In this document: positions 18,314 to 39,500 of the stretch, piece after piece
Position numbering within the stretch: position 1 is the first letter of the stretch
Layout: every line of letters starts with the position of its first letter
Assembly (NCBI GenBank): GCA_014905635.1
Contig: JABVCE010000004.1
Location: 186,001-250,000, forward strand
DNA: 64,000 nt
Direction: 5' to 3'
Source of the DNA: Scenedesmus sp. PABB004
Lineage: Eukaryota
Position numbers and translations under genes: made by a program
Notes under the pieces: model-generated
What the model was told of the DNA's origin: nothing
What the model saw: the letters and a program-made list of their open reading frames with translations, nothing else
Database searches by the model: none

Positions 18314-21300
18314 ATGGAAGACTACAATCCGGACGCGCTTGACGATCAGGAGCGCGATGGCGACGACGACGACGAGCAGGCGCGCCGCGGGGCGCGCCGC
18401 TGCGCAGAGCACGCGCAGCAGCAGCGGCGGCGAGCGCGGCCGCCCGCCCGCGCGCCCGCAGCGCGAGTGGGGCCGCGAGCGCATCATCGCGCTGATGGAC
18501 GCCGACGTGACCATGCTGCACGGGTACACCGACCCCGAAACGGTGCGCGCGGGCGGCGGCGGCGCTCAAACGCAGCGCAGCAGCTACTGCGCAGACAGCA
18601 GCGGCGCCCCGCGCGTGCCCACCCCGCCCCACGGCCGCGGCCGCGCGCCGGGGGCAGGGCGAGACGATGAGCTGCCTGTCGTGCGTGGTGCGTGAGGTGC
18701 TGGGCCTGATGGAGGGCCGCATCCGCACCGCGCCGAGCGACATGCTCGCCCTCCTCGCGTACGGCACGGTGCGTGGCCCGCCCCACCCGCCCACCCCCCG
18801 CCGCGCCGCGCTGCCGCCGCGTGAGCCCCGTCGCCGTGCGAGCCCCGTCTCGCCGCGCGAGCCCCGCCGCCGCGGGCGGGCGCCCGCAGAACGAGCGCAG
18901 CGAGGGCGCCGACCTGCGCGCGTTCGACCACGTGTGGGAGGTCGCGCCCCTGGACACGCCCAGCGCCACGACCATCCGCCGCCTGCGCGACTTCAGCGGT
19001 GCGCGGCGCGCCGCGGGCACGCCACGCGCGCCGCGCGGCGGCCGAGCCTCCGGCCCCCGCCCGCCCCCGCCCCGCCCCCGCCCGCGCGCCGACCCGGCCC
19101 GCCGGCCGCCCGCGGCCGACGGTGCCCAGACGTGGCGTTCCAGGCGTCGCCCGGCTGCGGCGACGCGGCCGCCAGCCCCGGCCGCGCGGCGGAGGACCTG
19201 AAGAGCGCCCTCTTTGCCGCCTGGGACCTGCTTAACCGGTGGGCCGGGTGGGGCTGCAGCCGCACTCGCGCGCCGCCGCCGCCGCCGCCGCCCGCCCGAG
19301 CGCCAGGTGCGGCGCGCGAGCGCCGCCGCCGCCGCGGCGCGTGCGCAGGGGCAGCTCGTCGGCCAAGGGCCGCGGCCCCGCGACCATCCTGATCTTCACC
19401 AACAACAGCGACCCCCTCGCCGGCGCGGGGCCGTCGGGCGCCCACGTGCGGTGAGGGCGCCGCGCCTGCGCCCGCGCCCGCGCCGCCGCGCCGTGCTGCC
19501 CACGCGCCCGCCCGCGCGCCCGCCCGCGCTGCGCGCCCACCCGCGCCGCCCGCGCGCCCGCCCGCGCCGCGCGCCGCGCCGCGCGCGCCAGAGAGCAGCT
19601 GTTTGCACGCGCGCGCGAGCTCGGCGCGCTCGGCGCCGCCGTCGAGCTGGTCCCGCTGCGGCGCGCGTTTGAAAACGCGCCCTTCTGGCGGCCGCTGCTG
19701 GCAGACGCGGCCGCGGCGGCGCGCGGCGCGTGGGCGGGCGGCGACGGCGGCGCGGACGACGCGGCGGCGCGCACCGAGGAGGCGGCGGAGGAGCTGGAGG
19801 TGTGCCGCGCGGCGGCCCGGCGGCGTGCCGGGCCCTGCCCAGGGGGGGGGTCCATCGGGCCCTAGCCGGCGGGCCTCGGGCGCTGCCGACCGTACTGCCG
19901 TCCGCCCGGCTCGGCGCCGCGCCGCGCCCGCAGCACAAGCTGAACCGCGTGCGGGAGCTGGCGGAGCGCGTGGGCCGGCGGCGCCCGCTCGCGGCGCTGC
20001 GCTGGACGCTCGCGCCGGGGCTGGTCATCAGCGTGCAGCTCTTTGCGCTGGTGTCGCAGGCCAAGAAGCCGGCGGGGCGCGTGATCACGCGCGACGACGC
20101 CAAGCCCGTGGTCGGCACGTCCGCGCTGCTCGCGGCCGACACGGGGCACCTGCTCTCCTCCGCGGGGCACAAGGCGTTCCTGCCGAAAGACACCGGCCGC
20201 TTCCCGCGGGTGGGCTTCAGGGCCAACGCCCGCGCCCCCGGCACGCCCGCGCGGCGCCCGGCGCCCGGCGGCGCCCGCCGCCGCGGCGGCGTGCCCATGG
20301 CGGCGGCGCGCCGCGCCGCGCCCGCGCGCAGGTCGTGCTGACGCGGCTGGAGGAGCGCTCGCTGCGCGCGCTGCGGCCGCCGGGGCTGACGCTGCTGGGG
20401 TTCAAGCCCGCCGCCTGCCTCGCGGACTGGCACCAGCTCGCGACAGCCAGGCGCGAGCCGCGCGGCGCGGGACGCGAGCGCGCGGGCCGGGCCGCGCCTG
20501 CGAGCGCGAGCGCGCCGTCACGGCCCGCCCCGGCCGCGCCGCGCCGCGCCGCGCCGCGCCCAGGTTTGTGTACCCGGACGAGCGCTTCCTGCGGGGCAGC
20601 ACCGCCGCGTTCTCCGCGCTGCACAAGGCCTGCATGGGCCGCTCGCGTGAGCCGCCCCGGCCGCGGCGCGCCGCCGCCCCGGCCGCCCCAGCCGCGGCGC
20701 GCCCCCAGCCCCGCCGCGCCCGCGCCCGCGTCCGCCGCGCAGTTGGCGGGCCGCAGCTGGCGCTGTGCAGCCTGGTGACCAAGGCCAGCACCGTGCCGCA
20801 GCTCGTGGCGCTGCTGCCGCAGGAGGCGGAGACCGCGGTGGACCCTGACAGCGGCGAGGTGCGCCGCCGCCGGCAGGGGGCCGCCGCGGCGGCGGGTCTG
20901 GCCCGGCCGGCACCGCCGCCGCCGCTGCCGCGCCGGGGGGTCACCGGCCACCCCGCGCCGCGCGGCGCGGGGGGCGCTGCCGCGCAGGAGTGGCAGGCGG
21001 TGCCGCCAGGGTTCCACCTTATCCCGCTGCCCTTCCGCGACGACCTGCGCGCGCCGGAGCGCGACGCCGCGCTGCTCGCGCGCACGGTCGGGCGCGACGC
21101 GTCGGGCGCGCCGCCGCGCGCGCCGCCCGACACGGTCGCGGCGGCCGAGGCGCTGGTGTGCGCGCTGAGCCTGGACAGTGCGGACGAGGGGTTCACGACC
21201 GCCATCATCGCCAACCCCCAGCTGGCGCGCTACTACGGAGTGTTGGAGGTGGGCAGCGGGGGCGGGGGAGGAGGGTGCGCGGCGCGGCGCGGTGCGGCGC

Positions 21301-21897
21301 GGCGCGGCGCGGCGCGGCGCCTGACCGCCGCCGCCGCCGCCGCGCCACGTCGGATGCGCCCGGGCCTGGCGCCGCGGGTCAGGACCTCGCGCTCGGCGAC
21401 GCGCCGCGCGACGCCGCGCCCGACGAGACGCGGCCGAGCGTGGAGGACATTGACGCGCACGGCCCCACGCTGGTGCGTGGCCGCGCCGCGCCGCGCTGCG
21501 CGGCAGCGGCCCCGCGCACGCGCGCAGCGCCGGGGGCGCCCGCGGCGGCCGCGCGCTGCGCGGACTCTGACCCGCGGCCCCCACGCGCGCCGGCGGGGCG
21601 CAGGCTGCGTTCAACACCGCGGTCTGGGGCAGCGAGGACGGGCCGCCGCCGCCGCCGGAGAAGAAGGGCGCGAAGCGCAAGCCCGACGCGGCCGAGGCGG
21701 CGGGCGTGGCCGAGGCGTACGCGGCGCACGACTGGGCCGCCCTCGCGGCGGCGCCGCCGGGCAGCGCGGGGAGCCTGGCCAAGCTGACCAACGACATCCT
21801 CAAGACCTACCTCGCCTTCCACGGCCTGCCCAAGAGCGGCAACAAGGCAGACCTGGTCGCGCGCGTGAGCGCGCACCTCGCCGCCACGCCGCGCTGA
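18314..21897 (+). CDS. KU70: Ku70 (NHEJ DNA end-binding subunit), multi-exon
   Basis: vWA-like N-terminus (RERIIALMDA, DMLALLAYGT, ILIFTNNSDP), Ku core (GLTLLGFKP, YPDERFLRGSTAAFSAL, PPGFHLIPLPFRDDLR, IANPQLARYYGVLE) and C-terminal SAP domain (LTNDILKTYLAFHGLPKSGNKADLVARV). Confidence 0.92.
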
Positions 21898-21921: not shown

Positions 21922-23105
21922 GCCGGCGGCGGCGCGTGAGCCCCACCGAGCGGCGGTGCGGCGCCCGGAGTTGCGGCCGCGGCCCAAGCGCGGGCGGGCG
22001 GCGCTTGTGTTTAACGTGAGCATGGGCCGCCGCGCGGGGAGCGTGCGCTGTGTGCGCTGCAGTCGGCGCGCAGCGTGCGCGGCGGGGCCCGTTCCGCGGG
22101 CCCCGCGCTGGCTGGCGGCGGCCCGCCAGCCCCCGGGCGGCCTTGCGCGGGGTGGGGAGGGCTGGGGGCGTGGTGTGGTGTCGTTTGGAGCGGTAAAAAC
22201 GTCGTTCACATGCCTGGAGCTCCAGGCGTGTCCTGACAAGAGTGGGATTTGAACCCACGCCCTTTCGGACACGGACCTGAACCGTGCGCCTTGGACCGCT
22301 CGGCCATCTTGTCGCGCAGTGCTTTTCAGAGCAAGTATGTTGTATATGTATATGCAACATCAAACATCCAAACCGCGCAGAACGCCACGGGATCACTCCC
22401 AAAACCAGCCCAGAAGCACCCCACGAGCCTGGCAGATTTTCCCCAAAATCTGCTTTTTGGCGATTTTTCCGCCCCGCCACAGAGCGCCCCCACAACACAT
22501 GGAAACGCAGGCGCGCCGCACGCGCACTGCAGAAAGGGACAGGGACTGGCCGCACGGGGCCGCCCGCTGCGCTGTCAAGGCGGCAGAGCGCCCAAGCGGC
22601 GGGCGCGGCTGTGTCGCCTGGCTGCGGCGGGCGCGGCCGCGGCCGGGGGCGCTGCGATAGCCGGGGCGGTCTGCGGCCGCTCGCGAGACGCTGCAGCGCA
22701 GCGTTGCACCCACGCGGCGCTGCCAGGGGCCGACGAGCAGACACCAGAGAGTGAGTAAGTTGCAGTCGCTCCCCCGGCCCCGCGTGCACGCTCCGCACAT
22801 GCGGAGCGTCCAGCCGGCGAGCGAGCTGCAAGCAGCTCCCCATGCGCCAGCTCCCCCCGAGCTCGATCCGGCACGTGCCTGGCTGGCCGCCGCGGCGGCC
22901 TCGTGCACCGAGGCTGCGCTTGCGTGGCAAGCAGCCGGCGGTCAGATGCCGGGGGGGGGGGGGCGGCGGCGCCCAGCACGGCGTTCCTGCCAGATGTCCG
23001 CCCCCCGCTGGTCGCTGGCTGCGGCGCGCTTTCAGGCGCCCCAGCTGTCCAGCGGGCAGGGCGCCCATGACCGCCTGGTTGCCGCTGGGGGTGGTGTCGG
23101 GTCGG
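21922..23105. repeat. tRNA-Leu cassette, copy 3
   Basis: Near-identical to 9850-11054. Begins ~25 bp after the Ku70 stop codon. Confidence 0.95.
22234..22313 (-). tRNA. trnL-CAG: tRNA-Leu(CAG)
   Basis: Identical to 10163-10242. Confidence 0.97.
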
Positions 23106-23534
23106 GCCCTCCCGCCGAGAGCCCGGGACGCACCTGGCCGCGACCCGGCGACGGTCGCGCGGTGCGGCCGAACGCCCCGCCACCGAACCGCCGTCACTTG
23201 CGGGGCTGGTGCCGATTGCCACTGCCTCGCCCTTGCCCGTCACCACAGCTCACCGACCCGCCCGCTGCAGCGGCAGGACCCCGAACCGCGGGCGGCGTTC
23301 AAACGCAGCTGCCGCGCTGGTCCGCCGCGCCGCGCCCGGGCTCCGCCGCTCCACGAATCGCACTGGCAGCGCGCATTCTCTCACCCAGGATCGCGAGCCA
23401 GGCCGCACTGCCCGGCCCGCCAGCAGACGCGCCTGCCCGCTCGCGTTGCGCCGCGTTCGCCACCCCTCGGGCGCGCCTGGTGGTGACTCTCGGCCTGTAC
23501 GCCGTCGCGGAGCGGCCCGCGCCCGCGCCGCGCC

Positions 23535-26500
23535 ATGGCGCAGTGGGAGGACACCAAGGAAAACTACGTGCCTGTGAAGGCCGGCCGCAGCGCTGCGGTG
23601 CTCTCCACGCCTCAGGACGGCGCCAAGGGCGACTCTCAGCTCGACGCCGCGCGGCGGTGAGCAGCGGCGCGGCCGCGGCGGCGCGGCGGCAGCGGCCGGC
23701 GCTGCTCACGCCGGCCGCGGCGCGCGCTGCAGGGCCTTCCTGGCGGACATCGAGGCCGCGGAGGACGCCCTGCCCGCGTGGCTGAGGTACATCAAGTGGG
23801 CGCAGGAGCGCTTTGCGGCGCAGGGCAGCAAGGCGGAGCTGCAGGGCGTGCTCGAGGCGGCCACGAAGGCGCTGAGCGCGACCGACCGCTACAACGACGA
23901 CGTCCGCCTGCTGCGCATCTGGATCCAATACGTGCGCGCCGCGCGCCCCCGCCCGCCGCCGCACGCGGGGCGCCGCTGCGTGCGCCGGCGCGCCGCCCGC
24001 CGCTCGCAGACCGCCGCCGCGCCGTGCCGCCCGCCAGGCCGACTGCCTGCCCGACCCGAGCGACGTGTTCCTGCACCTCGAGGCCGCGGGCGTGGGGCGC
24101 GGCCACGCGCTGCTGTACGAGGCGTACGCGACCTTCCTGGAGCTGCGCGCCAACTATGGCCAGGCGGAGCTGGTGTACGAGGAGGGAATCAACAGGTGAC
24201 ACCCCCTTGAGTCGCGGCGCCGCGTGGGCCGCGCGGCGCGGCACGGCGGCACGGTGCACGCGCCCGAACCGCCGCGCCGCCGCCCGGCGCAGGCTGGCCA
24301 AGCCGGTGGACCGCCTGAAGCAGAAGCAGGCGGCCTTCCAGCAGCGCATGGTGTGCGGCGGCGCCCGCGCAGCGCGGGCTGCGCGAGGCCAGGCGGGACG
24401 CGTGCGCGCGGGCGCCAGCTTGGCGCCCCCTCCACCCCGCCACTCCCTCGCTCGCGCCGCCCCCTGCGCCGCCGCAGGCCAGGCGCATCCAGCGCCAGAC
24501 CAGCGAGGCGCTGCTGGGCATGGGCGCCGCCGGAGAGCCGGCGGCCGCGCCGGGCGGCGGCCGCGCGACGCTCGCGCCCATGCTGGCGCCGGCGGGCGCG
24601 CCGGCGCTGGACGAGAACGGCCGCCCGCTGCGCGCGGCTGGGCGCCCGGCGACGGGCCGCCGGCCGCACGCGCCGCCGTCGGTCGCCGCGGGCGTGCAGG
24701 CAGCGCGCGGCGCGGCGCCGGCGCGGCAGCCGGCCCCGGGCCTCTGGGGCGGCGCGGCAGCGGCCGCGCACGGCGGCGGCGGCGGCCTGCTTGGCCTGGG
24801 CAGCGCGGCGGCGGGCGCCGGCGCCGGCCAGCCTGCGCCGCCAGCGTTCGCGCCGCCCCAGCCAGGCGGCGCGGGCGGCGGCAACGCCGGCGCCGCGCCG
24901 CTCGCGGTGCTGGTGGACGACGAGTTTGGGCCGTCTGGCGCCGGCGCGGTGCCGTCTGCGTTCCCTGCTGCCTCTGCTGGCGCCGCGGCGGCGGTGCTGC
25001 CGGCCTACGCTGTCGGCCGCAAGGAGAACACGAGCGAGCCCGGCGCGTGGGCGGGCGCGACGCTGGGGCAGGCGCGCAGCCTCGCGCCGCCGCCGGCCAG
25101 CCGGCTCGAGGTGTTTGATGACGACGACGACGAGGGCGACGGCGGCGGCGGCGGCGGCGGCGCAGCGGCGCCGCCCACGCATGCTGGGAGCCTGCGGCAG
25201 CGGCTGGACGCGCCGGCGCGCGGCTCGGCGGCGCCGCCGCCCACCGCGGCGCTCGGCGCGCTGGGGCTGGGCGGCGCGGGCGGCAGGCAGCAGGCGCTGC
25301 AGGCGCAGCCGCCGCCGCAGCGGGTGCAGCCTGTCGGCCGCAGCGGCAGCGCCGCCAGGCCAGCCGAGCCCCACGGCTACGACGCCGCGCTCCTGGCGGG
25401 CCCGGGCGGGCAGGAGCTGTGCTTCGAGGAGGTCAGGGCGGCGGCCTACTGCGCCCGCAGGCAGGCGGGGCGGCAGCAGGAGCAGGAGCGGGGGCTGGAG
25501 CAGCAGCGGCTGCTGGAGCAGCCTCAGCCTCGGCCGCCGCAGCAGCCGCAGGCGCAGCAGCCTCAGTTGCAGCAGCAGGCGCGGCAACCAGCGGCGCAGC
25601 CGCAACAGGTGCCGCAACCGGCGCCGCAGCCGCAGCCGGCGCCGCAGCCGGCGCCGCAGCTGGCGCCGCAGCCGGCGCCAGCACCACAGCCGCAGCCGGC
25701 GCCAGTGCAGCAGCCGCAGCAGGCCGCGGAGCCCACGGTGACCATCAACACGCGCGCCGCGCTGGACTCGGTCAACTCCATGTTCAGCGCCGACCTGCCC
25801 ACCGCCACTTTGCCGCGCGCCGCCATCGCCGCGGCGGCCGCGTACGCGAGCTCGGCGGGCTGCGGCGGCGGCGGCGCGCCGCGCGGCGCCGCGGGGCCGC
25901 CGCTCGGCCGCAAGTCGCTGGGCGGCGGCGGCGGGTGCAGCGAGCCCACGGTCACGCTGCACACGCGGGCGGCGCTGGACGCAATGAACGGCATGTTTGG
26001 CGGCGCCGACGACACCGCCACGCTGCACGGCTTCAGCCTGCGCCAGGCGGCGCACCCGGGCGGCGCGCACCCCGGGGGCCGCGCGGGCGGAGGGCGGCCG
26101 GAGCCGACGGTGACCATCAACACGCGCGCCGCGCTGGACTACATGAACGACGTCTTTGGCGGCGCCGACGCGACGCAGCACGGCCTCGGCGGCCGCGCGC
26201 CGCGGGTGCGCGGGTGCAGGGGGAGGGCTGGTTGCGCTGCGCGCTGACGCGCCGCGCCGACGCGCCGCGCCGACGCTGCTGCCGCCCGCCCGCAGCGCGC
26301 CGGCGCGAGCCGGCTGTCCATGGCGGCGCCGGCGGGCGACCCCGCGCTGCTGGGGCTGTACGAGGACACCGAGTTTGTGGGCGGCCGGCTCGCGGCTGCC
26401 GGTGGCCCCGGCGGCGGCCCCGGCGGCGCGCTGGGGCTGTGCGAGGACACCGAGTTCATCACACGCCCCGTCGGCGGCGCGGGGCTCGGCGCGCTGGGGC

Positions 26501-27485
26501 TGTACGAGGACACCGAGTTTGTGGGCGGCCGGCTCGCGGCCGCCGGCGGCCCCGGCGGCGCCGGCGCGCTGGGGCTGGGGCTGTGCGAGGACACCGAGTT
26601 CATCACCCGCCCCGTCGGCGGCGGCGCCGGCGCCGGCGGCAGCGCGCCGTCAGTGCCGGCGCCGGCGCCGCCGGGCAGGTTCGGGCGCGGCGCCGCGCCG
26701 CGCCGCGCGCACGACGACGCGGGCGACAGCACGACGGGCCTGCTGCGGGTCAAGGAGAACCTGCCCGCGCCCGCGCCGGCCGCCGAGGCCGGCGCCTGCA
26801 GCGCGCCCAGCTCGCCGGGTGCGGCGCGCGCCGCGGCGCGCACGCGCGCTCGCCGCCGCGTCGCCCCGGCGGCTGAGGGCGGCTCGCGCCGTGCGCCGCC
26901 GCCGCGCCGCGCGCAGGCGTCGCCCGCCCGGGCCCCGCGTGGGGCGCCGCCACGCCCGGGCGTCCGCCGGCGGGCCCCGGCTCCGCCGCGCCCACGCCCG
27001 GCCGCGCGTCGGCGCCCGGCACGCCCGGCACGCCCTGGGCGGCGCAGCTTGAGGAGTTCGAGGTCATGGACAGCCCCGCCGCGCGGCGCGCGATGGCGGC
27101 GCGGCCGCCGCCGGCCGTGGCCAGCCCCGCCGCGTCGCTGCCCTCGCCCGGCCTGGTGCGGCGCGCGCGCGCGCGCGGCTGCCGCGCCGCGCCGCGCCGC
27201 GCCGCGCCCGCTCCAACGCGTGCGCGCCGCCGCCCCCGCCGCCACGCCGCGGCGCAGAGCCGGGAGAACGCGCCCAGCGCGTGCTGCGCCGGCGAGGGCG
27301 CCGCGCTGCAGCCGCGCAGCCTGGCCGACCGCGCCGTGCGCGCCGCCGCGCTGCGGCCGCTCTCCGAGGCGCGCGCGGGGCTGCTGGGCGTGGAGGTTGA
27401 GCCGGACGCCGCGCCGAGCGACGCCGGGCCGCGCGGCCGCGCGCTGCGGGCGCTGCCCTTCTCGCGCAGCCCCGACCGGGCCTGA
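23535..27485 (+). CDS. Spindle checkpoint protein of the MAD3/BUBR1/BUB1 family, no kinase domain visible, multi-exon
   Basis: MAQWEDTKENYVPVKAGR (KEN1), TPR domain (WLRYIKWA, RYNDDVRLLRIWIQY|AD, ALLYEAYATFLE, LAKPVDRL), KEN2 (RKENTSEPGAW), GLEBS (ELCFEEVRA), CD1-like and ABBA-like repeats. TGA at 27483-27485. Confidence 0.88.
26350..26622 (+). repeat. Coding tandem duplication (~144-bp unit x2, each with two LGL[YC]EDTEF motifs)
   Basis: ctggggctgtacgaggacaccgagtttgtgggcggccggctcgcggc... at 26350 and 26494. Confidence 0.9.
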
Positions 27486-27890
27486 TCGCCGCTGCCGCTG
27501 GAGCGGCGCGACCGCGCTGGCAGCGGCGGGCGAGGCGGTTGACTTTGGCGCCGCGCGCCGCCCGGCCCTCCGCAGCGCGCCCGCGCTGGACAGGGCGGCT
27601 GCATCTGCGGCGGCCGCGCTCGATCTGGCCGGGCGGGCTGTGTGGAGCCCTGGGTGCGCGGAGCCCTGGGAGTGGTCGCAACTGCCGGGCGTTCGCGCAG
27701 ACGGGCCACCCGCGCCGCACAGCCGCGCCCGCCACTGCAGCCCCTCACCCCGCACAGCACGCACGCGCACTCACGCAGCATGTAGAGGATGGAGCGCGCA
27801 CGCGAGGTCGCCCCGGCGGGCGCGCCGCGCTGGGGCACGCAGGTGCTGCGGACAGCCCAATTCTGAGCTGAGCGGGCAGAGGACGACGCC

Positions 27891-29465
27891 ATGTCCTCCG
27901 CGGGCGGCCCCAGCCCCTCGGGCGCGGGCAAGCCACCCTCCGCCGGAGCAGGCGCGCGGAAACTGTTCAAACGCCTCTGCTACGACGACAGCCTGGACGC
28001 CTCCGAGTTCACGGTGCGGCGCAGGCGGGTTCGCGGCGGGCGGGGCCAACAATGGCCAACAACGAATGCTGGGCCCACCAGGCCCCGCCAGCCCCCGCCA
28101 GCCCCCGGGGCCAACCCTCCGGGCGCCAGCGCCTCCTGGTCTCGCCCTGGACGCAGCTGCGGACGCAGCAGCGCCGGCGGCGCGCCGGGGCGCCGCGCGC
28201 TGAGCTAGCGCCGCTGCTGCTGAGGTCGCCCGCGGTCGCCGCCACGCGCCGCGTCCGTGACGCCGCCGCCGCCGCTGCCCGGCCGCAGGTGGGCCTGCTG
28301 GAGACGCGCGAGCAGGCGGAGCGCAAGAGCGGCGCCGAGGCGTGGAGCCTGCGCCTGCACAGCGCGGTCGTGGAGCTCCCGTTCGCCGAGTTCTGCCGCC
28401 GCTTTGCCGCGCGCGGCGACGGCGAGCCGCCGTTCCATCGCATCGCCTTCTTCAAGCAGCACGGCCTGATCGTGTGGTGCGCGGGGGCAGGGGCACGGGG
28501 GGGCCTGCCAGGCTGCGCGCGCACACGCCGCCAGGCTGCGCGAGCGGCGCGGCGCCGCCCACCCCCCACCGCGCCGCGCCGCGCCGCGCCTGCGCAGGGA
28601 GGCGGAGCACCTGCGCCCGCGGCCGCCCGGCGGCGAGGGGGGCACCACGCGCCGCCGCTGCCGCCCGTGCCGCTGGCCGGGAGCTTCTCGGGCTGCTCGC
28701 CGCCGTCCGGCGGCGGCGCGTCGGTCCGCTTTGGCGCGCCGACGCTGGCGGCGCCGGGCGGCGGCCTGCCGCCGCGCGGCTCGCACCCGCTCGACTGCGG
28801 CGGTTCCGGCACGTTGAGCGGCAGCTTGAGCGGCAGCGGGCCGCTCACGAGCATCCACTGGAAGCCGCACCGCAGCAGCGGCACCGACGCGGGCAGCCCC
28901 GCGAGCTGGGGCGGGCCGGGGCACTGGTCCGCCGCGGCCGCCGCGAGCGGCGGGCTGGGCGGGCACGGCAGCCTGCACGGCGCCTCGCCCAGCGCGACGT
29001 CGCCGCTGCTGGGCAGCAGCCCCTGCGCGCTCGCCGGCAGCTGGGCGGCCGGCGGCGCCCTCGGCGCGAGCCTGCGCGCCGCGAGCAGCAGCGGCGGCGG
29101 CGGCGCGCTGCTGCTCGGGCCCAGCCCGGGCGGCTCCTGCGGCAGCAGCTGGGCGGGCACCAGCCCGCTCGCGGCCGCGCTCGCGGCGGCCAGCGGGCTG
29201 GGCGCGTCGCCGCCGGGCGGCGGCGCCGGCCCCGGCGACGCGGCGGCGGCGGCGCCGCCGGCCGCCGAGGCGGCGCCGGAGCTGGCGGACTATTCAAACC
29301 TGCCCGAGGAGTGCTGGGTGGACGTCCTGCAGCGCCTCGGCGTGCGCGAGCTCTGCTTCTGCGCGCGCGTCAACAGGTGTGTGGGGGGCGCGGTGGCGGG
29401 CGGCCGGGCCGCGGGCGAGGCAGCTCGGGCGGGACCGGCGGTGGCGGCCGTGGCGCCACCGCTGA

Positions 29466-29524
<59 letters not shown>

Positions 29525-31702
29525 AGGGCGCTGCGCGGGCTGTCGGCGCGGCCGTTCCTGTGGTCCTCCGCTTACGGCCGGCTCTTTGGCGCGCCGCCGC
29601 CGGCCGACTGGTCGGCGCAGACGGTCAAGCGCCTGTGCCGGCGCTCGCAGCTGCGCGCGAGCCGCTGGCTCGAGGCCGCCGTGGAGGGGCGGCCGTGCGG
29701 CTTTGCCGGCACGTCCTGCCTGCAGCTCGACGACGCTAAGGTGGTCTCCGGCGACGGCTGCTGCGTGCGGTTGTGGGCGCACGAGACGGGGCGCCGCATC
29801 GCGACGCTGCGCGGCCACGCGGGTGCGGGCGGGGCGACCGCTGGCGCCGCGCGCCGCGGCCGGCCCCGCCTCGCCTGTGCCCCGCCTCACCCGCGTTGCT
29901 GCTCGCCTCCGCCCCTGCCCCGCGCCCCTGCCGCGCCGCGCCGCGCCAGGCCGCGTGACGGCGGTCGCCTTTGACGACGAATTCATCCTCAGCGGCTGCA
30001 GCCAGGGCGGCGTCAAGCTCTGGGGCATGGTGCGCCCCGGCTGCGCCGTACGGCGCACCAGCGGCGCGCGGCCTTGGCTGTAGCGCGGCGCGCCGCGCTC
30101 GCGCTGAGCCCGTGCCGCGCCGCCGCCGCCGCCGCCCAGGACGACCTGAAGCTGGCAAAGGCGCTGCGGCACCACACGCAGCCGATCAGCGCCACGGCGC
30201 TGCTGGGCGGGCTGCCCATCTCTGCGAGCGCCGACGGCGCCGTCGCGGTGTGGGAGCCCGCCGCGCCCAACACGCCCCTCGCGCTCATGCACGCGGGCGG
30301 GCCCCTGCACGCCATGCAGCTGCGCCATGACCGGGGTGCGCGCCCGCGGGCGCGGGGGCGCCGGCCGCGGTGCCGGCCGCGGCGCCGGCGCCGTGCCGGG
30401 CCCGCCTGCGCGCCGGCGCTCAGTGGCCCGACCCGTCTCGCGCGCCGCCCCCGCAGGCCAGCTCATAACCGCCGGCGCTGCGCTCTGTGTGTGGGACATG
30501 GCGACGAGCGCGCTGCTGTCCACGCTGCGCGCCCCGCCGCTGCCGGCCGGCGACCTCAGCAGCAGCAGCAGCGCCGCCAGCCTCGCCGGCGCGGGCGGCC
30601 CGGGCGCGCCGGGCGCCGGAGGCGGCGGCGGTGGCGACGAGCTGGACGCCGACGCGGTGGACGGCGTGCTGCTGCACGATGCATGGGCGGCGGGCGGCGG
30701 GAGCGACGACAGCGACGACAGCGATGACAGCGACGACAGCGACGACGCCGACAGCGTTGGCGGCAGCGACCAGGACGCGGGCCGGGGCCGCGGCGGCCGC
30801 GGCGGCGGGCGCCCACGGCGGCAGCGGCGGCGGCAAGCCGTTCACGTCGGTCGCGTGCGCTGAAAACCTGGTGGCAGCAGGTGGGGGCGTGCGGGCTGCG
30901 GGGGAGGCCGGCCGCGCGGCAGGCAGCGCGCACCGCAGGCCGCACACCGCCGACCGCCGCCGGTCGCGCCCGCCGCCGCAGGCCGCGCCGGCTCGGTGCT
31001 GCTGTGGGACCTGCGCACGCAGGACCCGATCGCGCGCTCGCGCCCGCCGGCGCGCGGCGCGGCACGGCGCCGCCGTGCGTGGGTGTGCAGCTCGACGACT
31101 GGCGCCTCGTGACCGGCTGGTCGGGCGCCGACCCGCTCACCGGCGGCGGCGGCGCCCGGGGCGCGGTGTGGTGGCGCAGCAGCGTCGACGACATGCACAG
31201 CGTCGCGGCGGGCCTCGACGCGGGCGCGTGCGGGCACAGCCTGCAGGTGTATGACATCCGCGCCGCGCCCACGTTCCGCGCGGCGCGCCGCCGCCGCCGC
31301 CGCCCGCGGCGGGCCCGTCGTGCGCGGGCGGCGGCGCGCGGGCTGTGGGGCGGCGCGCCGCTGATGTGCCTCGCCGTGCCGGCGCGCGTGACGTGCTTCC
31401 AGTACCACGGCCCGCACATGCTGGTCGGCCAGGAGGGCAGCGACTGCGTGCTGCTCTCGTTCGAGCCGCCCGCCGCCGCCGCGGCGCGCAGCGCAGCGGC
31501 GTGGGGCTTTGCCGCGCCCGGCGGCGGCGGCGGCGGCGCGCCGGGCGGCGCGGCCTACGGCTCCAGCCCGGCGCGCGGCGCGCGGCGGCTGGGAGGGCGA
31601 GGGCGAGGGGGGCGGCCGCGGGCGGGGCGGGGCAAGAAGGGCGGCGCCAAGGCGAGTGCCGCCAAACGCCAGGGGCGCTACCCGAAGCGTGCGACGCGCT
31701 GA
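27891..31702 (+). CDS. F-box/WD40 protein with N-terminal MJ1316 (DUF504)-like domain, multi-exon
   Basis: Exons 1-2: ARKLFKRLCYDDSLDASEFT|VGLLE...VELPFAEF...PPFHRIAFFKQHGLIVW. F-box: YSNLPEECWVDVLQRLGVRELCFCARVNR. WD40: CLQLDDAKVVSGDG..VRLW, LRGHA|GRVTAVAFDDEFILSG..VKLW. Has 1-bp frameshifts in G/C runs. Confidence 0.85.
29466..29523 (+). repeat. (GCC)n microsatellite in an intron
   Basis: ~19 perfect GCC units immediately before the 3' splice site. Confidence 0.9.
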
Positions 31703-31918
31703 CGGGGCGCGGCGCACGGCGCGTGGCGCGGCGCGGCGGCGTGTGTTGTCATTGTGTGAGGCGCGGGGCTCCGTTGGGCGTGTGCGGGGGTGTGTGGCAG
31801 AGGGCGGGAGGGGGGGGGGGTGATTGTGTGAGGGGGGGGGGTCGCGTCTCGGTGATCATGGCGGCGGCGCGGCGTGGCGGGCCGTGTGGCGCAGCGCCGC
31901 GCCCGATTGCGCCGCGCC

Positions 31919-32418
31919 CGAGCAACAGGCGCCGCCGGACGGCGGCGCCGCCGCTACAGCAGCGCTCGCGGCCGCTTCGGCCCTCCGCCGCTTCCGCGGC
32001 GGAGGGCCTGGACCTGGACGACGCCGGCCCGATGCCCAGGCCCCAGGTCGTGCTCGTGGGCGCGACGGTGAGCGACGGTGATGTGGAGCTCGCGCTGTCG
32101 CGGGGGTGGGTGGACGAGCCGGTCCTGGTGCGCGTGGGCGAGGCGGGGCGCGTGCCGGCGGGCCTCCGCCACCGCGCGGTCGTGGTCGCCAGCCCCGAGG
32201 CGCGCCTGGGCGGCCTCGTGGGCAGCCTGCGCCGCGACCTCGGCGGCTCGCTCGCCGCGGCCGACGCGGCCGCGCGCGGCCGACGCGGCCGCGGCGGCGC
32301 GCGCGGGCGGCGCCGCGCCCGGCGACGCGCCGGGCGCGCGGCCGGTGCGCGTGATTGTGTTTGCGCCCAGCGAGGCCGAGGCGCGCGGCGCGGCGGAGCC
32401 GCTGCGCGCGGCGCTGTG
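31919..32418 (+). pseudogene. Duplicated internal exon fragment of the downstream DEAD-box helicase
   Basis: Near-identical to ~35355-35820 (EGLDLDDAGPMP[RK]PQVVLVGAT...EPLRAAL). Flanked by imperfect ~95-bp direct repeats at ~31825-31916 and ~32419-32517. Confidence 0.8.
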
Positions 32419-32963
32419 TGTGTGGGGGGGGGGCGTCTCGGTGATCAGGGCGGCGGCGCGGCGGGGGGGGCGGGGGGGGGGGGGGGGTTGGCGCAGCGCC
32501 GCGCCCGATTGCGCGCGCGGCACCTGCCCGTGCGGGGTGCGGGCAGGGCAGGGCGGAGCGGATCTCGGGGCCCCCATCCGGGGCCGCAGCTGCAGCAGCA
32601 GCGGACTGCCGGCACTGGGCGACGGCGGCGCACGGGCGGCGACGGGGCGCGTCGCGGCGCCCACTCACGTCGTCGTGAGTGGGTTTTTTCCCGGGCGGCA
32701 TGGGCGGTTGACAGACAGACCTCTGCCACAGGACCGGCGCGCTGCAGACAGCCGCGGGCGACCGACGGGGCGCGTGGATGCGGCGCGTGTAAGCTTTTGA
32801 CCGGGCGGCGACTCACTCACACACGGCGGCGGGCGTCCCAGCAGCACCGCCAGCGCCCGCAGCGCCGCACCGCCCCGCACGCGCCGCTGCTGCTGCCGGC
32901 GCTGCGCGCCGCCGCCGATCTCGCGAGCAGAGCCCAGCGACCTCGCCTAAGGAGCGTGGCACC

Positions 32964-35900
32964 ATGCTGCGGCGCATGGGTGCCGCGCCCGCCCGGCAGC
33001 GGCCCGTGGCGTGGGCAAGGCCGGGTGCGGCCTCGCTCCACCGGCCTGGCCCGAGCGCCCTGGCCGCGGCGCGCGGGCGTGGGCGGCAGCGGCGAGCCAG
33101 GTGCGAGAGTAGCACGCCGGGGCGGCCCTGGCGCGCGCCGCACGGCCTGCGCGCGGGCGGCGGGCCGCCGCCGCCGCTGCTGTGGCGGTGGCGCGCCGCG
33201 TGCATGCGCGCGGCGCCGGGGCCGCCGCCGGCCGCCGCCCAGGCCGCGGCCTTGCACACGCCGCAGGTGCCGTGCCTCTGACGGCGGCAGCGCCGCGCCA
33301 CGCGAGCCGCTCGACAGCAGCGACGGCGACGGCGCGGCGCCCGCGGGCGGCTGGCAGGCGGCGGCGGGCCTGCCGTGGGACGAGGCGCCGCGGCCGCCGC
33401 CGGCCGACTATGCGACGATCCCGGAGCGCCTGGGCGGCATGGACGCGAACCAGCTGCAGACGGCCCTGGGCGTGGCCATCGCGGCCGAGGACTACGCCCT
33501 TGCCGGCCAGTGAGCGCGGCGCGCCCGCCGCAGCACGCGCCGCACGCGCCGCACGCGCCGCCGCCACCGCGCACCGCCCACGCGCCCCCCGCCCGCGCGC
33601 GCGCCCGCGCCGCGCCCCAGGATCAAGGAGCGGCTGCAGGCCAAGCTCGCGGACAGCGGCTCGGCGGCGAGCGGGCAGCCGATGGACTGGACCGCGCTCG
33701 GCGTGGAGCCCTGGCTCGCGGAGCGCGCGGAGCGGCTCGGGCTCATGTTCCCCACAGGCGCGGCGCGCGCCGCCGCCGGCGCCGCCGTCCACGCCGCCGC
33801 CCGCGCGGCCGCGCCGTCCGCCGCCGCCCGCCCGCCCCGCCCGCCCGCGCCTCTCTCAGCGTCCGCCCGCCGCCGCGCCGGCCGCGCCGGCCGCGCCGCG
33901 CGCGCAGAGGTGCAGCGCCGCGCCGCGCCCGTCATCCTGAGCGGCGCCGACGCGGTCGTGGCGAGCGAGACGGGGTCGGGCAAGACGGCCGCCTTCCTCC
34001 TGCCCGCGCTCTGCAGGCGCGCGGGGCGCGGGGCGCGCTCGTGGGCGGCCGCCGCCGGCCGACCGACTGACGACCCCGCCCTGCTGCGTTGTGCCGCGTG
34101 TGCCGAGCTGTGGTCTCCCCCCCCCCCCCACACACACACACGCACACACGCGCAGGCTGGATTACCCGCCGCTGCTCTTCCCGGACGACCTGGAGGGCCC
34201 GCAGCTGCTGCTGCTAGTCCCGTCGTTCGAGCTGGGCGTGCAGGTGCGACCCGAGCAGCGCGCGCGGCCGGCGCAGCGCGCGCGGCGCGCCGCCGCTCCG
34301 CGCGGCGCGACCCGCCCCACTCCGCCCGCGCGCCGCTCTGCCGCGCCGCCAGGCGTGCCTGCTGCTCTTCCGGCTGTGGGGCGGCAACATCAGCAGCCGC
34401 ACGCCGGGCGACCCGGGCAACATGTTCAGCTACACCGGGCCCCCGGGCATCAAGGCGCGCCCGCCCCCGCCTGCCCCCGCGCGCCCGCCCCGCACGCGCG
34501 CGCCGTGGCGTGCGCGCCGTGGCGCGCGCGGCGGCGGCCGGCCGCGCGCGCGCCAGGCAGACGCGCGCGCCGCCGCGCCGCCGCGCGCCGCGCGCGTGGT
34601 GCAGGTGCGTGGCCTGCTGAACGACGAGGAGCTGCAGATGGCGGTCGCGGGGCGGTACCTCTCCGGCGTGCACGCGCTCGTCGCGACGCCCGACATGGCG
34701 CTCGCGCTGCTCAGCCTGCCGGACAGCCCGCTCAGCTTCCAGGCGCGCGCGCGCGCGCCGCCACGCCACGCCGCGCCGCGCACTCAGCCGGGCGAGTCGG
34801 CGCGGTGCCGCCGCGCCGCGCGCGCGGCCGCCCACACGCCCGCGCGTGCGCCGCCGCCCGTGCGCGCAGGACCTGCGGGCGATTGTGGTGGACGAGGTCG
34901 ACGCGCTGCTGGCGAGCTACCCGGCGAGCTTTGGGCAGCTCATGGACGCGGCGGTGGCGCGCCACGCGCCCGGCGCCGCGCCCAGCAGCGGCGAGGGCGG
35001 GCCCGGCGGCGAGCCGGGCGGCCCCGGCGGGCCGTCCGACCGCCTCGCGCAGCTGCAGGCGCTGCTCGGGCGGCAGCAGCTGGAGCAGCGCGCGGCGCGC
35101 ACGGCGCGCGCCGAGGGCGCGCCCGACGCGGCGAGCCTGGCGGCCGCGGCCGCGGCGGCGCGGCTGGAGGGCCTGCTGGCCGCGCCGGCGGCGGCGGGCG
35201 CGGCGGAGCAGCAGCAAGAGCAGGCGCAGGAGCCGCAGACGCAAGAGCAGCAGCAAGAGCAGCAGGCGGAGCAGCAGCAGGGAGAGCAGCAGCAGGCGGG
35301 GCAGCAGCAGCAGGCGCCGGGCGGCGCCGCCGCGGGCGCCGCCGCGGAGAGCCGCGAGCAGCAGGCGCCGCCGGACGGTGGCGCCGCCGCGGCAGCAGCG
35401 CTCGCGGCCGCGGCCGCGGCGGAGGGCCTGGACCTGGACGACGCCGGCCCGATGCCCAAGCCCCAGGTCGTGCTCGTGGGCGCGACGGTGAGCGACGGTG
35501 ATGTGGAGCTCGCGCTGTCGCGGGGGTGGGTGGACGAGCCGGTCCTGGTGCGCGTGGGCGAGGCGGGGCGCGTGCCGGCGGGCCTCCGCCACCGCGCGGT
35601 CGTGGTCGCCAGCCCCGAGGCGCGCCTGGGCGGCCTCGTGGGCAGCCTGCGCCGCGACCTCGGCGGCTCGCTCGCCGCGGCCGACGCGGCCGCGGCGGCG
35701 CGCGCGGCGCGCGCGCGCCGCCCGGCGACGCGCCGGGCGCGCGGCCGGTGCGCGTGATTGTGTTTGCGCCCAGCGAGGCCGAGGCGCGCGGCGCGGCGGA
35801 GCCGCTGCGCGCGGCGCTGTGGGGAGACCACATGCTCTCGGTTCTGTTGCCATCGACGGGCGCGGAGCCGGTCAAGGCGCTGCACGCGTTCCGCGACCGC

Positions 35901-36226
35901 GTGGCGAGCCTGCTGCTCGCGACGCCGAGCGCGGCGCGCGGGCTCGACCTGCCCGCGGTGAGCCACGTGTACGGCCTGGGCCTGCCCGGGAGCGCGGTGG
36001 AGTACGTGCACCGCGCGGGGCGCGCGGGCCGCATCGGCAGCACGTCGGGCGGCGAGAGCGTGAGCGTGGTCACGCGCGACGAGCTGGGGCAGCTGCGCGC
36101 GCTCGTGGAGGGCGAGCTGGGGCTGGCCCTGGAGGTCGACGAGCTCGACCGCCAGCCCGGGCTAGGCCTGCTCGGCGACGACTGGGCGGCCGCGCGGCAG
36201 GGCCTGCTGTCGGCGGACGGCGCCGA

Positions 36227-36258
<32 letters not shown>

Positions 36259-36347
36259 AGCCGAGCGGCGAGCCGGCGGGCCAGCCGGGCGAGGCGCAGG
36301 TCGAGGCGGCGCGCAAGGGCCTGGAGGACCTCTTCCGCCTGTTCTAA
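32964..36347 (+). CDS. DEAD-box-type RNA helicase with N-terminal UVR motif, probably organelle-targeted, multi-exon
   Basis: UVR: QLQTALGVAIAAEDYALAG|RIKERL. Q motif WTALGVEPWL...FPT|EVQ, motif I SETGSGKT, motif II DEVD, motif III GAT, motif V ARGLDL, motif VI YVHRAGRAGR. Start codon uncertain. Frameshift near 35700. Confidence 0.85.
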
Positions 36348-36548
36348 CGTCCTCAAGATGCTGATGCTGATGCTGATGCTTTTCTCATGCGCGGCGGCTG
36401 TGGCTGGCTGCGGCCGGTCGGATGCCGTCTTGAACGAAGAACACCGCACGCGCGCGCGGCCGGCGTGGGCGCCAGCTGGTTCACCTGGTATCCCTCTCCT
36501 GAGCTTGGCGGCTGCCCCGCCGCCCTCGTCAGCGCCGTGCGGGCTCGA

Positions 36549-39500
36549 TCACTCCGTGGCGCCGCCGCGCGCCGCCGCCGCGAGCACGCGGTCGCAGTAG
36601 TGCCGCGCGCGGAAGCGCTCCGCGACCTTGCCCACCTCGGCCGCCGCCACGCGCGGGTGCGTCGCCGCGAGCGCCTCGAGCACCTGGGCGCCGGGGGCGC
36701 GGCGCCAGCTCAGCACAGCTGAGCTGCGGGCGCAGCCCACAGCCCGCCGCGCGCTGCGGGGCTGCCCCGCGCCGCCGCCGCCGCGCCGTGCGCCGCCGCG
36801 CCTGGCAGGCCGCCTCTGCGACGAGCGCGTCGCCGTCGTCCATGTGGATCACCACGCCGGCGGCGAGGTAGCCCGCGTTGGTCGCGCAGTACCCCGGCCC
36901 CGCGGCGCGCACAAACGCGACGAGCGACGCGCACGCCGCGACGCGCACCTGCGCGCGAGGGGACGCCGCTGGGTGACCGGGCCGGCGGCGCGGCGCGGCG
37001 CAAGGATACACCTCGCGCTCCCCGCCCCTCCCCGCATGCCGCGGTTCGCCTTGCCTTGTTGGCGCTGTCGTCGAGGCGCTTCAGCAGCTCCGGGTACAAC
37101 GCCCGCCGCGCCTCGTCGTCCAGCGACGCGCCGACCTGGCGTCGGCCGGGGCGCGGCCGGCAGCGTCAGCCGGGCGCGGCGGCGCGGGCGCGGCGCGGCG
37201 CGACGCGGGCGCGCACCTGCTCCAGCAGCGCCTGCGTCACGTAGCAGGCCGTGTGGCGCAGGTCGGCGTACCAGTCGTCGTCGAGGCACTGGGCGAGCAG
37301 CGGCAGCAGCCCGCCCGCCGGCGCGGCCGCGGCGAGCAGCGCCTCAGGCGGCGCGAGGCGGCGCGCGAGCAGCGTCGCGAGCGCGGTGATGGCGGCGAAG
37401 CGCACTGCGGCGGCGGCCTGGCGGCGTTTGTGGCGGCCGTCGTGAGCGGGCGTGACCCGGCGAGCGGGCAGGCGCGCGGCGTCGACAGCGGCGCGGCGCG
37501 GACGCGCGCGCGCGCGCGCGCCGCGGCCCACCTTGCCGGCGCGCCACACGAGCGGCGGCACGAGCAGCGCGCGCAGCGCGAGCGCCGCGTTGCCGCCGCG
37601 CGCAAACGCGGCGCCCGTGGCTTTGCCCTCGAGCAGGCCGTCCAGAAGCCGCAGCAGCGCGAGGCGCAGCCCCGGGTCGCGGTCCGCGTCCGCGAGCAGC
37701 GGCGCGAGCACCTGCCGGCGCGGCGGCGGTCGTGGGAGCGGGCCGGGGCGCGGCGCCGGGCGATTCCCACGCGGCGCTGGCGCCGGGCAGCCAGCGCCCC
37801 AGCGCCCCAGCGCCGCACCTCAGCCACGGCCGGCAGCAGCTCCGCCAGCGCGTCGGGCCCCGCCGTGCGCAGCAGCGACATGACCGCCTGCAGGTTGGGG
37901 CTGCCCGCCGTCCAGCCGTCCGCGTCGGCCGCGAGCGCGCGGAGCAGCGCGCGCCCGTGCGCCGCCGCGAGCGCCCCCGCGTCGGCCAGCCCGCACGCGT
38001 CGGCGAGGCGCTGCAGCGCGGCCGCCGCCCGGTCCGCCGCGGCCGCCGCGTCGGCGTCGGCGCCGCCCGCCTCGGTGCCCGCCGCGGCGGCATTGCCATG
38101 GAGCTGCAGCAGCACGAGGTGCAGCGCCTGCCCGTGCTCTACCACGACCTCGGGCGGCGCCCAGGCGATGAGCGCGGACGCGAGCGAGAGCGCCTGCGCC
38201 TGCACGCCCGCGTGGTCGCTGTGCCGCAGCTCCTCGCCCGCGAGCGCGCCCACGAGCAGGCCCAGCAGGCGCGGGTCGCCCGCCTGGCGCGCCGCCGCCG
38301 CGGCGTGCACGAGGCACGAGCCGACGACGAGCGCGTTGGCGCGCGCGCCGGGGCCCGCCTTGGCGTCGGTCAGCGCGTCCACGAGCAGCGGCAGCCACGC
38401 GCCCGCCTGCGCGAGCGCGCCGAGCGCGCGCGCGCAGGCCGCAAGGCGCGCCACAATGTCGGGCTCCTCCTCGCCCATCGCGCCGATGAGCGCCGGCAGC
38501 AGCGCGCCGAGGTGCGGCGCAGCCGCGGGGCCCGCGAGCACGAGGACCGCGTGCAGCGTCCTGGGGGCGCGGCGCGCGCGTCAGGCGAGCGGCGGGCGCG
38601 GCGCGTGCGCGCATGGCGGCGGCGCGCGCGGCGACGCACCTCGCGGCCGCGCTGCGCAGGGTCGCTGTCCACTCCTTGAGCCCCGCCAGCACGCCCGGCA
38701 GCAGCTGCGGCAGCAGCGCGACGACCATGCGCCGGCACGGCTCGCCCGGCAGGCCGTCAAACGGCGGCGGCAGCTGCGCTGCGGCGACCGCCTCGGCGGA
38801 CGCCGCCAGGTCGGGCGCCGCCGCCGCCGCCGCCGCCGCCGCGCCGGGGCCGTCGGCGTCCATGGGCTCGCCGCCGCCGCTGTCGCCGGCGGCGGCGGCA
38901 GCGGGCAGCGCGAGCCACGCCGCGCCCGCCTGCTCCAGCGCCGCGAGCGCGGCCGCCGCGATGCCGTCCACCGGGTCGGACACGCCCAGCAGCAGCAGCG
39001 GCAGCAGCGCGGGCGCGTGCGTGCGGCACTGCGCGTGCGCGGCGTCGGCCGCGCCCGCGCCCGCCGCCTCGGCGCCGCCGTCGGCGGCGCGCGCGGCCGG
39101 CTGCGCCGCGCAGCCCAGCCAGGCCGCCAGCGCTGCATAGTAGGACTCCCGGACGGACGGCGAGTGGTCAAACGCGAGCGGACGCAGCGCCGGCGCCAGC
39201 GTGCCGCCGACGGCGCCCGCGGGAAGGCCCGACAGCACCAGGCTGCGCAGGCCCGCGAGCATCGCGAGGCGCACCTTGCTGTGCTGGTGCGCCAGGTTGG
39301 GGAGCAGCGACTGCGCGGCAGGCGCAGGCCGGCCGGCGCGGGCGCCACGCTCAGCGCGACGCCGCCAGCGCGCCCGCGCGCTCCCGCCGCCCCGCGGCCC
39401 GCGGCGCGCACCTGCAGCAGCCGCTCCGCCTGGTCCTCCAGCCTCCGGGGCGGCAGCCGCTCCGCGAGCGCGCCGAGCGCCGCCGCGGCGGCCCGCTTGG

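Follow-up and report, generated by a model that had tools for sequence, protein, structure and literature searches.

The locus at positions 27891-31702 (+ strand) of the window, by which we mean the whole 64,000-nucleotide (nt) stretch of contig JABVCE010000004.1 from Scenedesmus sp. PABB004, raises the question of whether a single algal gene joins an MJ1316 domain to the F-box and WD40 repeats of a ubiquitin-ligase adaptor and, if it does, what such a protein might do. The ligand assigned to MJ1316 goes back to Burroughs & Aravind, whose 2019 paper (PMC6514570) states that the domain recognises 2'-3' cyclic RNA ends and occurs in fusions with RNA-repair domains as well as with C12orf65-like release factors. 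A first-pass annotation of the window had placed an MJ1316-like domain in two exons, 27891-28013 and 28289-28476, with a Gly/Ser linker, an F-box, WD40 repeats and a basic tail behind it, and all of these parts proved to be present, up to a TGA stop codon at 31700-31702. The gene comprises eight exons and ~936 codons, and its product begins with a Ser/Gly/Pro leader, followed by the MJ1316 domain (ARKLFKRLCYDD..PPFHRIAFFKQHGLIVW), a low-complexity linker of ~230 residues and an F-box split by intron 3, after which come a helical linker, WD40 repeats whose loops are long and of low complexity, and a basic tail (..KRQGRYPKRATR). To judge from the modelled fold, the protein belongs to the FBXW-type substrate receptors of SCF (SKP1-CUL1-F-box) ligases and carries, in addition, a conserved MJ1316 domain and a conserved basic tail.

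The G+C content of the window is ~80% throughout, and because this makes open reading frames (ORFs) the rule in all six frames, they carry little weight. The window was scanned with Pfam exon by exon, and the spliced model was scored against family profiles built here, the Pfam gathering scores used being 26.3 bits for MJ1316 (PF04457), 24.3 for F-box-like (PF12937), 20.5 for F-box (PF00646) and 27 for WD40. Exon 2 alone matched MJ1316 at profile positions 29-73 of 75 (E 0.0065, 17.6 bits), a score under the gathering value because the exon holds only part of the domain; exon 1 alone gave no Pfam match, and the first half of the F-box, in exon 3, matched F-box with 18.0 bits (E 0.0028) and F-box-like with 15.4 bits. 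The two N-terminal exons read as the first-pass annotation had given them and, when spliced, matched a profile of six chlorophycean N-domains over positions 1-86 with 126.4 bits (E 1.7e-38). Only two of the 740 six-frame ORFs of the window match this profile, both of them exon-bearing, and the ORF holding exon 2 does so with 89.7 bits. The spliced model also scored 126 bits against the family profile of the F-box and linker, and 736 bits, in a single stretch over positions 41-819 of 819, against a full-length family profile of 12 sequences.

By sequence, the window gene is the ortholog of Tetradesmus obliquus OEZ86_001186 (P0003, 888 residues), a protein that lies over all the Pfam thresholds (MJ1316 35.1, F-box-like 33.7, F-box 31.9 and WD40 43.9 bits) and whose MJ1316 match spans residues 36-115 and profile positions 4-74 of 75; a tblastn search of the window with P0003 recovered all exons, in order. 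The MJ1316 threshold was reached by five of the 13 relatives scanned, namely P0152 (37.9 bits), P0003, P0002 (33.7), P0001 (32.1) and P0139 (32.0). P0152, from Chlorokybus, additionally carries F-box-like (25.1 bits) and WD40 (56.7 bits) and ends in ..KYPKRRTR, and the F-box-like and F-box scores of other orthologs are 36.9 and 30.8 bits in P0150, 41.1 and 28.4 in P0155, and 37.8 and 28.1 in P0209. In the window the stretch corresponding to the MJ1316 core motif P.HRI..FK..G..VW is PPFHRIAFFKQHGLIVW; its H is invariant among 20 relatives and its P, R and I are nearly so. Since the matches of P0003 and the scores of the N-domain, F-box plus linker and full-length profiles all agree, the observation made in the first-pass annotation is confirmed, and the N-terminus is, on its sequence, a strongly conserved member of the MJ1316 family.

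Structure models were made for the ortholog P0009 with AlphaFold (AF2), together with a second model of the N-domain. The P0009 model consists of a compact alpha/beta N-domain, with a predicted local distance difference test (pLDDT) of 82-91 save in one loop, the family-specific R.SG..AWS.R; a disordered linker; F-box helices with a long linker helix (helices 211-282); and 28 strands forming seven blades at residues 285-598, the pLDDT of the propeller being mostly 85-97. Foldseek placed FBXW11-SKP1, beta-TrCP1, FBXW7 and Cdc4 at the top of its matches to this model (E 8e-25 to 1e-18), FBXW11/beta-TrCP being best by fold, and a sequence search of the PDB gave beta-TrCP1 as the best natural match (E 1.7e-30) and FBXW7 with E 7e-26. 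The window model aligns through all the propeller blades. The C-terminal two thirds of the protein thus have, in the models, a seven-bladed F-box/WD40 fold of the beta-TrCP/FBXW7 kind. A predicted complex of the P0009 N-domain with its own F-box/WD40 part gave no support for intramolecular docking.

For the N-domain, whose second model reached a pLDDT of 91-97, the comparison with solved structures was of another kind. By fold, the best Foldseek match in the PDB had E 1.2 and the best VIA-align match Z 4.2, with none of 48161 chains at Z >= 5; by sequence, the N-domain profile had no PDB match at E <= 10, and P0001 retrieved only His-tag artefacts. The lack of a clear solved relative does not make the fold new. 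When residues 30-125 of P0003 were compared with the ESM Atlas, all neighbours were PF04457 clusters, with a feature score of 0.87 and a template-modelling (TM) score of 0.57-0.62, normalised to the query and comparing model with model. Between 97 and 100% of the members of these clusters carry PF04457, and three rows reach the bar for naming a family; the neighbours comprise stand-alone fungal and archaeal proteins, LENG9, fusions to PAP_central (poly(A)-polymerase) and bacterial fusions to Exo_endo_phos and 2_5_RNA_ligase2. As far as models can tell, the N-domain has the fold of other MJ1316 members.

Whether these domains belong to one gene depends in part on what lies upstream. The neighbour on that side, at 23578-27485 (+), is a Mad3/BUB1-type spindle-checkpoint gene (Mad3_BUB1_I, 57 bits at 23578-24207 and 41 bits at 23876-24196), the C-terminal part of which contains repeated [LM]YEDTEF[VI] motifs (~26300-26650) and repeated EPTVTINTRAALD.MN.MFG blocks (~25700-26100). 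Two deposited models, P0002 (Scenedesmus) and P0004 (EukProt), join Mad3/BUB1 to the MJ1316-F-box-WD40 protein, from which the same head-to-tail neighbourhood is implied in their genomes. It could be argued, then, that the architecture is an artefact of gene modelling, the MJ1316 and F-box/WD40 exons being separate genes or the protein being part of a fusion with its upstream neighbour: open frames are weak evidence in DNA of this composition, the two fused models exist, and the Mad3/BUB1 frame is closed by 27485 with the ATG at most ~400 nt downstream. But that ATG, at 27891, is directly preceded by an in-frame stop, and P0004 omits exon 1, which disrupts its MJ1316 domain and leaves a profile match at 35-74 only, with 21.1 bits. 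Relatives on short contigs, moreover, have uninterrupted ORFs (P0009, 654 residues in 2864 nt; P0010, 676 in 2646 nt; P0150, 586 in 2960 nt; P0137, 757 in 2843 nt) that start with Met just ahead of MJ1316, reach the RYPKR tail, lack a Mad3 domain and run continuously across the positions of the window introns. Because the window gene has seven introns, these contigs are most simply taken as spliced transcripts, which suggests that MJ1316, F-box and WD40 lie on one mRNA. Together with the recurrence of the N-domain, F-box and WD40 layout in one protein in 16 named green-algal species, this leaves an artefact highly improbable.

The distribution of the layout was followed with several searches. 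A word-indexed search with exon 2 retained seven proteins from 21 candidates, among them P0003 and others for which PF04457, F-box and WD40 had been precomputed; a search with P0003 gave 162 matches, the top 16 of which are green-algal relatives; and the N-domain profile gave 27 matches, all of those with an organism name being green algae. The locus is taken to be one nuclear gene of a chlorophycean green alga, its closest relatives coming from Tetradesmus and Scenedesmus (53-72% identity). Bacterial and archaeal genomes searched with the N-domain profile yielded 170 pattern matches, none of which was confirmed. The full-length profile returned 197344 matches, and among the 150 listed, giant WD40 proteins dominate after the first ~20; because generic WD40 proteins swamp this search in such a way, absence from land plants, trebouxiophytes and prasinophytes cannot be concluded. 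A local rescan of the 273 proteins collected found 30 with both the N-domain and the F-box/linker, of which 17 account for the 16 named species: Tetradesmus obliquus, Scenedesmus sp., Raphidocelis (two paralogs) and Monoraphidium; three Volvox species, Pleodorina, Tetrabaena, Sanguina and Dunaliella; Chlamydomonas incerta, C. schloesseri, C. eustigma and Edaphochlamys; and the basal streptophyte Chlorokybus atmophyticus. The full layout is conserved from Chlorokybus to Chlorophyceae and most likely predates the chlorophyte-streptophyte split. Five relatives (P0008, P0016, P0136, P0138 and P0144) begin inside or just before the F-box and have no N-domain; proteins of this kind, which include sequences from Gonium, Haematococcus and Chlamydomonas sp. 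UWO 241 and one transcript-derived ORF, may represent either truncated models or genuine short isoforms.

Within the protein, the N-domain is the best-conserved segment: its mean pairwise identity, taken over 12 full-length members, reaches 0.58, followed by the F-box and helix (0.51), the propeller (0.51), the tail (0.50) and the linker (0.18). Invariant in the N-domains of 20 members are the His of the HRI motif, whose Arg is invariant or nearly so, and the R.SG..AWS.R signature, which in the window lies in ERKSGAEAWSL (28307-28339) and may form a ligand-contact loop peculiar to the subfamily. The C-terminal tail has the consensus KK..[RK][YF]PKR.T[KR] and ends in RYPKRATR in the window protein; the strict pattern R[YF]PKR..[KR]$ was found in 18 of the 30 two-part relatives, and in its sequence the tail looks like a nuclear localisation signal.

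The gene model on which these comparisons rest can be followed exon by exon along the + strand. Exon 1 (27891-28013) carries the ATG, a short Ser/Gly/Pro-rich leader and, from ~27954, the first part of MJ1316 (ARKLFKRLCYDDSLDASEFT); it is 51% identical to P0003 residues 15-56 by tblastn and ends in the donor acg/GTGCGG after ..EFT. Exon 2 (28289-28476) encodes the MJ1316 core (VGLLETREQAERKSGAEAWS..PPFHRIAFFKQHGLIVW) with 65-67% identity to P0002, P0003 and P0004, its last W codon running over into the first base of exon 3, so that exons 1 and 2 together encode ..ARKLFKRLCYDDSLDASEFT/VGLLETREQAERKSGAEAWSLRLHSAVVELPFAEF..PPFHRIAFFKQHGLIVW. Exon 3 (28598-29376) continues with EAEHL.., passes through a frame change at a run of six G and encodes the low-complexity linker, in which the blocks LPPVP.LGSSF.GCSPP and HWKP.R.SGTD..GSP.SWGGPGHWSAAAAA are common with Tetradesmus in alignments to P0003 and P0001, and from 29300 the first half of the F-box. 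The F-box, LPEECWVDVLQRLGVRELCFCARVNR/ALRGL.., is interrupted by intron 3 and completed in exon 4 (29527-29822), which further contains the helical linker (..KRLCRRSQLRASRWLEA..) and the first WD40 blade and is 74% identical to P0004 residues 680-771. A WD40 repeat (RVTAVAFDDEFILSGCSQGGVKLWGM; Pfam WD40 E 0.018; 74% identity to P0002) makes up exon 5 (29950-30029), and further WD40 blades, with weak beta-propeller Pfam matches and 54% identity to P0003 residues 425-513, exon 6 (30140-30335). Exon 7 (30457-30880) holds a WD40 blade, a long Ser/Gly/acidic insertion loop with a DDS repeat, tandem repeats at 30702-30746 and 30786-30831, a frame change and then ..KPFTSVACAENLVAAG, and exon 8 (30982-31702) the last WD40 blades with low-complexity loops, another frame change, the basic tail at ~31631-31699 (..KRQGRYPKRATR) and the stop codon. 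All seven introns are GT-AG, 101-275 nt long, with donors mostly of the GTGCG type and acceptors that are all CAG, and in the modelled frames the G+C content at third codon positions (GC3) is 0.95, as against 0.75 and 0.67 at positions 1 and 2. Intron 3 contains, at 29466-29524, a perfect (GCC)n microsatellite of 19.7 copies, which in frame translates into the poly-Arg run of a long ORF; the presumed 3' untranslated region just past the stop is G/T-rich at 31760-31835, with two long G runs. Minus-strand ORFs over the locus matched no Pfam family, and Rfam gave no match at gathering score over 23000-37000 of the window. Elsewhere on the + strand lie a DEAD-box RNA helicase gene downstream, at 33514-36344 (DEAD E 7e-9; Helicase_C E 5e-13), and a Ku70-like gene at 20085-21894, where adjacent ORFs match a Ku beta-barrel (E 2e-6) and a SAP domain (E 1e-8).

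To stay in register with the orthologs, the gene model has to change frame three times. The frameshift that the first-pass annotation had placed in a G run near 28640 is real and sits at the G6 run 28637-28642, but two others had gone unmentioned, one somewhere in ~30760-30800, beside a 9-nt tandem repeat in the alignment to P0003 and P0008, and one in ~31040-31066, where ~30 nt separate two conserved blocks. At the first site, exon 3 read from the donor 28476/GT gives W-EAEHLRP.., comparable to VWEAE[HN]LK in relatives, and beyond it the conserved ..HHAPPLPPVPLAGSFSGCSPP.. lies one base out of frame. An alternative intron 2 in frame (28478-28597), which would have spared the frame change, was ruled out, as VWEAE[HN]L in the orthologs demands the donor 28476/GT and the G-run shift; an intron behind the second frame change was likewise ruled out, there being no GT-AG candidate of at least 40 nt. 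It may be asked from this whether the window copy is a pseudogene, its function lost in the organism or kept in a paralog elsewhere. The number of frame changes speaks for such a decay, as do the want of an intron explanation at the second site, the mere ~30 nt between conserved blocks at the first and third, and the possible redundancy illustrated by the two Raphidocelis paralogs (P0005 and P0014). Past each frame change, however, protein conservation goes on in the new frame with a GC3 of 0.88-1.00, the splice sites are all intact, and the model aligns with the family profile from end to end. Because each of the three sites falls in a G/C run or a short tandem repeat, where assemblies typically acquire indels, such errors are likelier than a dead gene; the three disruptions most likely reflect faulty indels in G/C-rich runs, and a pseudogene is considered fairly unlikely.

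What such a protein would do can be proposed from its parts. In the reading put forward here, which is held tentatively and at a little under an even chance, it is an SCF adaptor coupling 2',3'-cyclic-phosphate ends of RNA (RNA>p) to ubiquitination. The F-box would dock on SKP1-CUL1-RBX1, as the fold match to the SKP1-bound chains of FBXW11, beta-TrCP, FBXW7 and Cdc4 would predict, and the WD40 propeller would hold a protein substrate. The MJ1316 domain would bind an RNA end that carries a 2',3'-cyclic phosphate, or else a similar cyclic-phosphate ligand, and this binding would recruit or activate the ligase at the cleaved RNA or ribonucleoprotein, where proteins on the cut RNA, for instance a nuclease, a stalled ribosome or a factor involved in processing or repair, could then be ubiquitinated; the basic tail may serve as a nuclear localisation signal or as a second contact with RNA. 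Several points weigh against the coupling of RNA ends to ubiquitination. The exon-level Pfam scores of the window are sub-threshold (MJ1316 17.6, F-box 18 bits), MJ1316 is also sub-threshold in P0005 (23.0 bits), P0004 (21.1) and P0006 (18.0), and P0150, P0155, P0171, P0209 and P0163 have no MJ1316 match at E <= 1e-4, although these five do match the N-domain subfamily profile with 32-72 bits. No solved MJ1316 structure was found in the PDB by sequence and fold searches. The invariant R.SG..AWS.R loop, modelled at lower confidence, could mean a changed ligand, and with three frame disruptions the window copy may be non-functional. The binding of RNA>p by MJ1316 is, besides, a computational prediction, for which PMC6514570 cites two sequence-analysis papers.

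The same loop bears on another explanation, in which the N-domain has been re-purposed and the ligase does not act at RNA ends, the domain sensing instead free 2',3'-cyclic AMP or GMP or ADP-ribose 1''-2'' cyclic phosphate, or serving as a module for protein-protein contact, dimerisation or localisation. The invariant family-specific signature inside the domain would fit such a change. So would the position of the domain, as FBXW proteins such as beta-TrCP and FBXW7 carry a dimerisation region ahead of their F-box; the algal N-domain, however, lies ~60-250 residues from the F-box over a disordered linker, unlike the D-domain of beta-TrCP. The HRI motif is kept and the Pfam profile is matched over 4-74 of 75, and the closest Atlas neighbours are ordinary MJ1316 proteins fused to RNA-end enzymes, both of which argue against such a change. 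On the other side, 2',3'-cyclic AMP is described in PMC8968299 as a stress signal arising from RNA decay in plants. Taken together, a re-purposed domain is regarded as unlikely next to the coupling of RNA ends to ubiquitination. A bolder form of the proposal, judged quite unlikely, would make the protein a ligand-gated nuclear SCF receptor ancestral to green plants, in which MJ1316 senses stress-made RNA>p ends or free 2',3'-cyclic nucleoside monophosphates and thereby activates the ligase, or moves it elsewhere, for the destruction of specific proteins. Either functional reading of the family could hold even if the copy at this locus were a pseudogene.

Among known systems, the closest in layout are beta-TrCP1/FBXW1A and FBXW11 (PDB 1p22, 6wnx and 6m90), which resemble the algal protein in F-box, helical linker and seven-bladed WD40 propeller. 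Identity between beta-TrCP and the algal protein is nevertheless only 17-19%, and beta-TrCP has an N-terminal dimerisation region and no MJ1316, nor does it possess an RYPKR tail or long loops of low complexity. FBXW7 and Cdc4 (PDB 2ovr, 7t1z, 1nex and 3v7d) share the FBXW receptor layout (Foldseek E 6e-23 to 1e-18) but lack MJ1316, and their propellers have eight blades, whereas that of the P0009 model has seven. In beta-TrCP, FBXW7 and Cdc4 alike, arginines on the upper propeller face bind phosphodegrons. The Tetrabaena ortholog has been named 'Cell division control protein 4' automatically, a name that is no evidence of orthology. A single polypeptide that reads RNA and directs ubiquitination is found among the RNA-binding RING E3 ligases with KH, CCCH or RRM domains, such as Roquin, MEX-3 and ZNF598/Hel2; these belong to the RING ligases and recognise a sequence or structure in RNA, or else collided ribosomes, whereas the algal protein would be a cullin-RING receptor with a predicted RNA-end reader. 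Proteins of the LENG9 type (zf-CCCH, AKAP7_NLS/2H phosphoesterase and MJ1316) have the same MJ1316 domain (TM 0.60 to the Atlas LENG9 clusters) but pair it with an RNA-end enzyme, while the algal protein pairs it with a ubiquitin-ligase adaptor and has no RNA enzyme. In fusions to poly(A)-polymerase-like nucleotidyltransferases, to Exo_endo_phos with 2_5_RNA_ligase2 and to C12orf65-like release factors, MJ1316 likewise stands as an accessory beside an effector; the effectors in the poly(A)-polymerase, Exo_endo_phos and C12orf65-like fusions act directly on RNA or the ribosome, and the portion of PMC6514570 that deals with them does not mention an F-box/WD40 effector.

The first-pass annotation had regarded the architecture as undescribed, and this holds in part. 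No paper describing MJ1316 with an F-box and WD40 was found in the literature covered, which did not extend to Burroughs & Aravind 2016, and a search with the locus tags of five orthologs found no mention of them in the literature; predicted proteins with this layout have, on the other hand, already been deposited, as 'hypothetical', as 'F-box domain-containing' and, in one UniProt entry, under the automatic name 'MJ1316 RNA cyclic grou[p]..'. None of the three objections that the annotation had anticipated was encountered, these being a missing MJ1316 match, MJ1316 exons on a separate transcript and an architecture already characterised. An SCF receptor with a predicted RNA-end reader is therefore unstudied, yet it is no categorically new system.

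SCF receptors are known to recognise marks on proteins and, in land plants, small hormones as well. If the proposed coupling is true, RNA cleavage would be linked directly to cullin-RING ubiquitination, the cleavage possibly stemming from tRNA or rRNA processing, stress nucleases, toxins or the cutting of RNA at stalled ribosomes; and if the ligand-gated reading were to hold, a route from RNA damage to proteolysis would exist, with a logic like that of the plant hormone-sensing F-box receptors and a nucleic-acid breakdown product as its input. MJ1316, for which neither a solved structure nor an experimental ligand was found, would in addition gain its first functional handle. The combination is unexpected and ancient, being common to Chlorokybus and Chlorophyceae, and since the family has members in Chlamydomonas incerta, C. 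schloesseri and Volvox carteri, all closely related to the genetic model C. reinhardtii, the idea that these algae may connect RNA ends to protein ubiquitination is directly testable.

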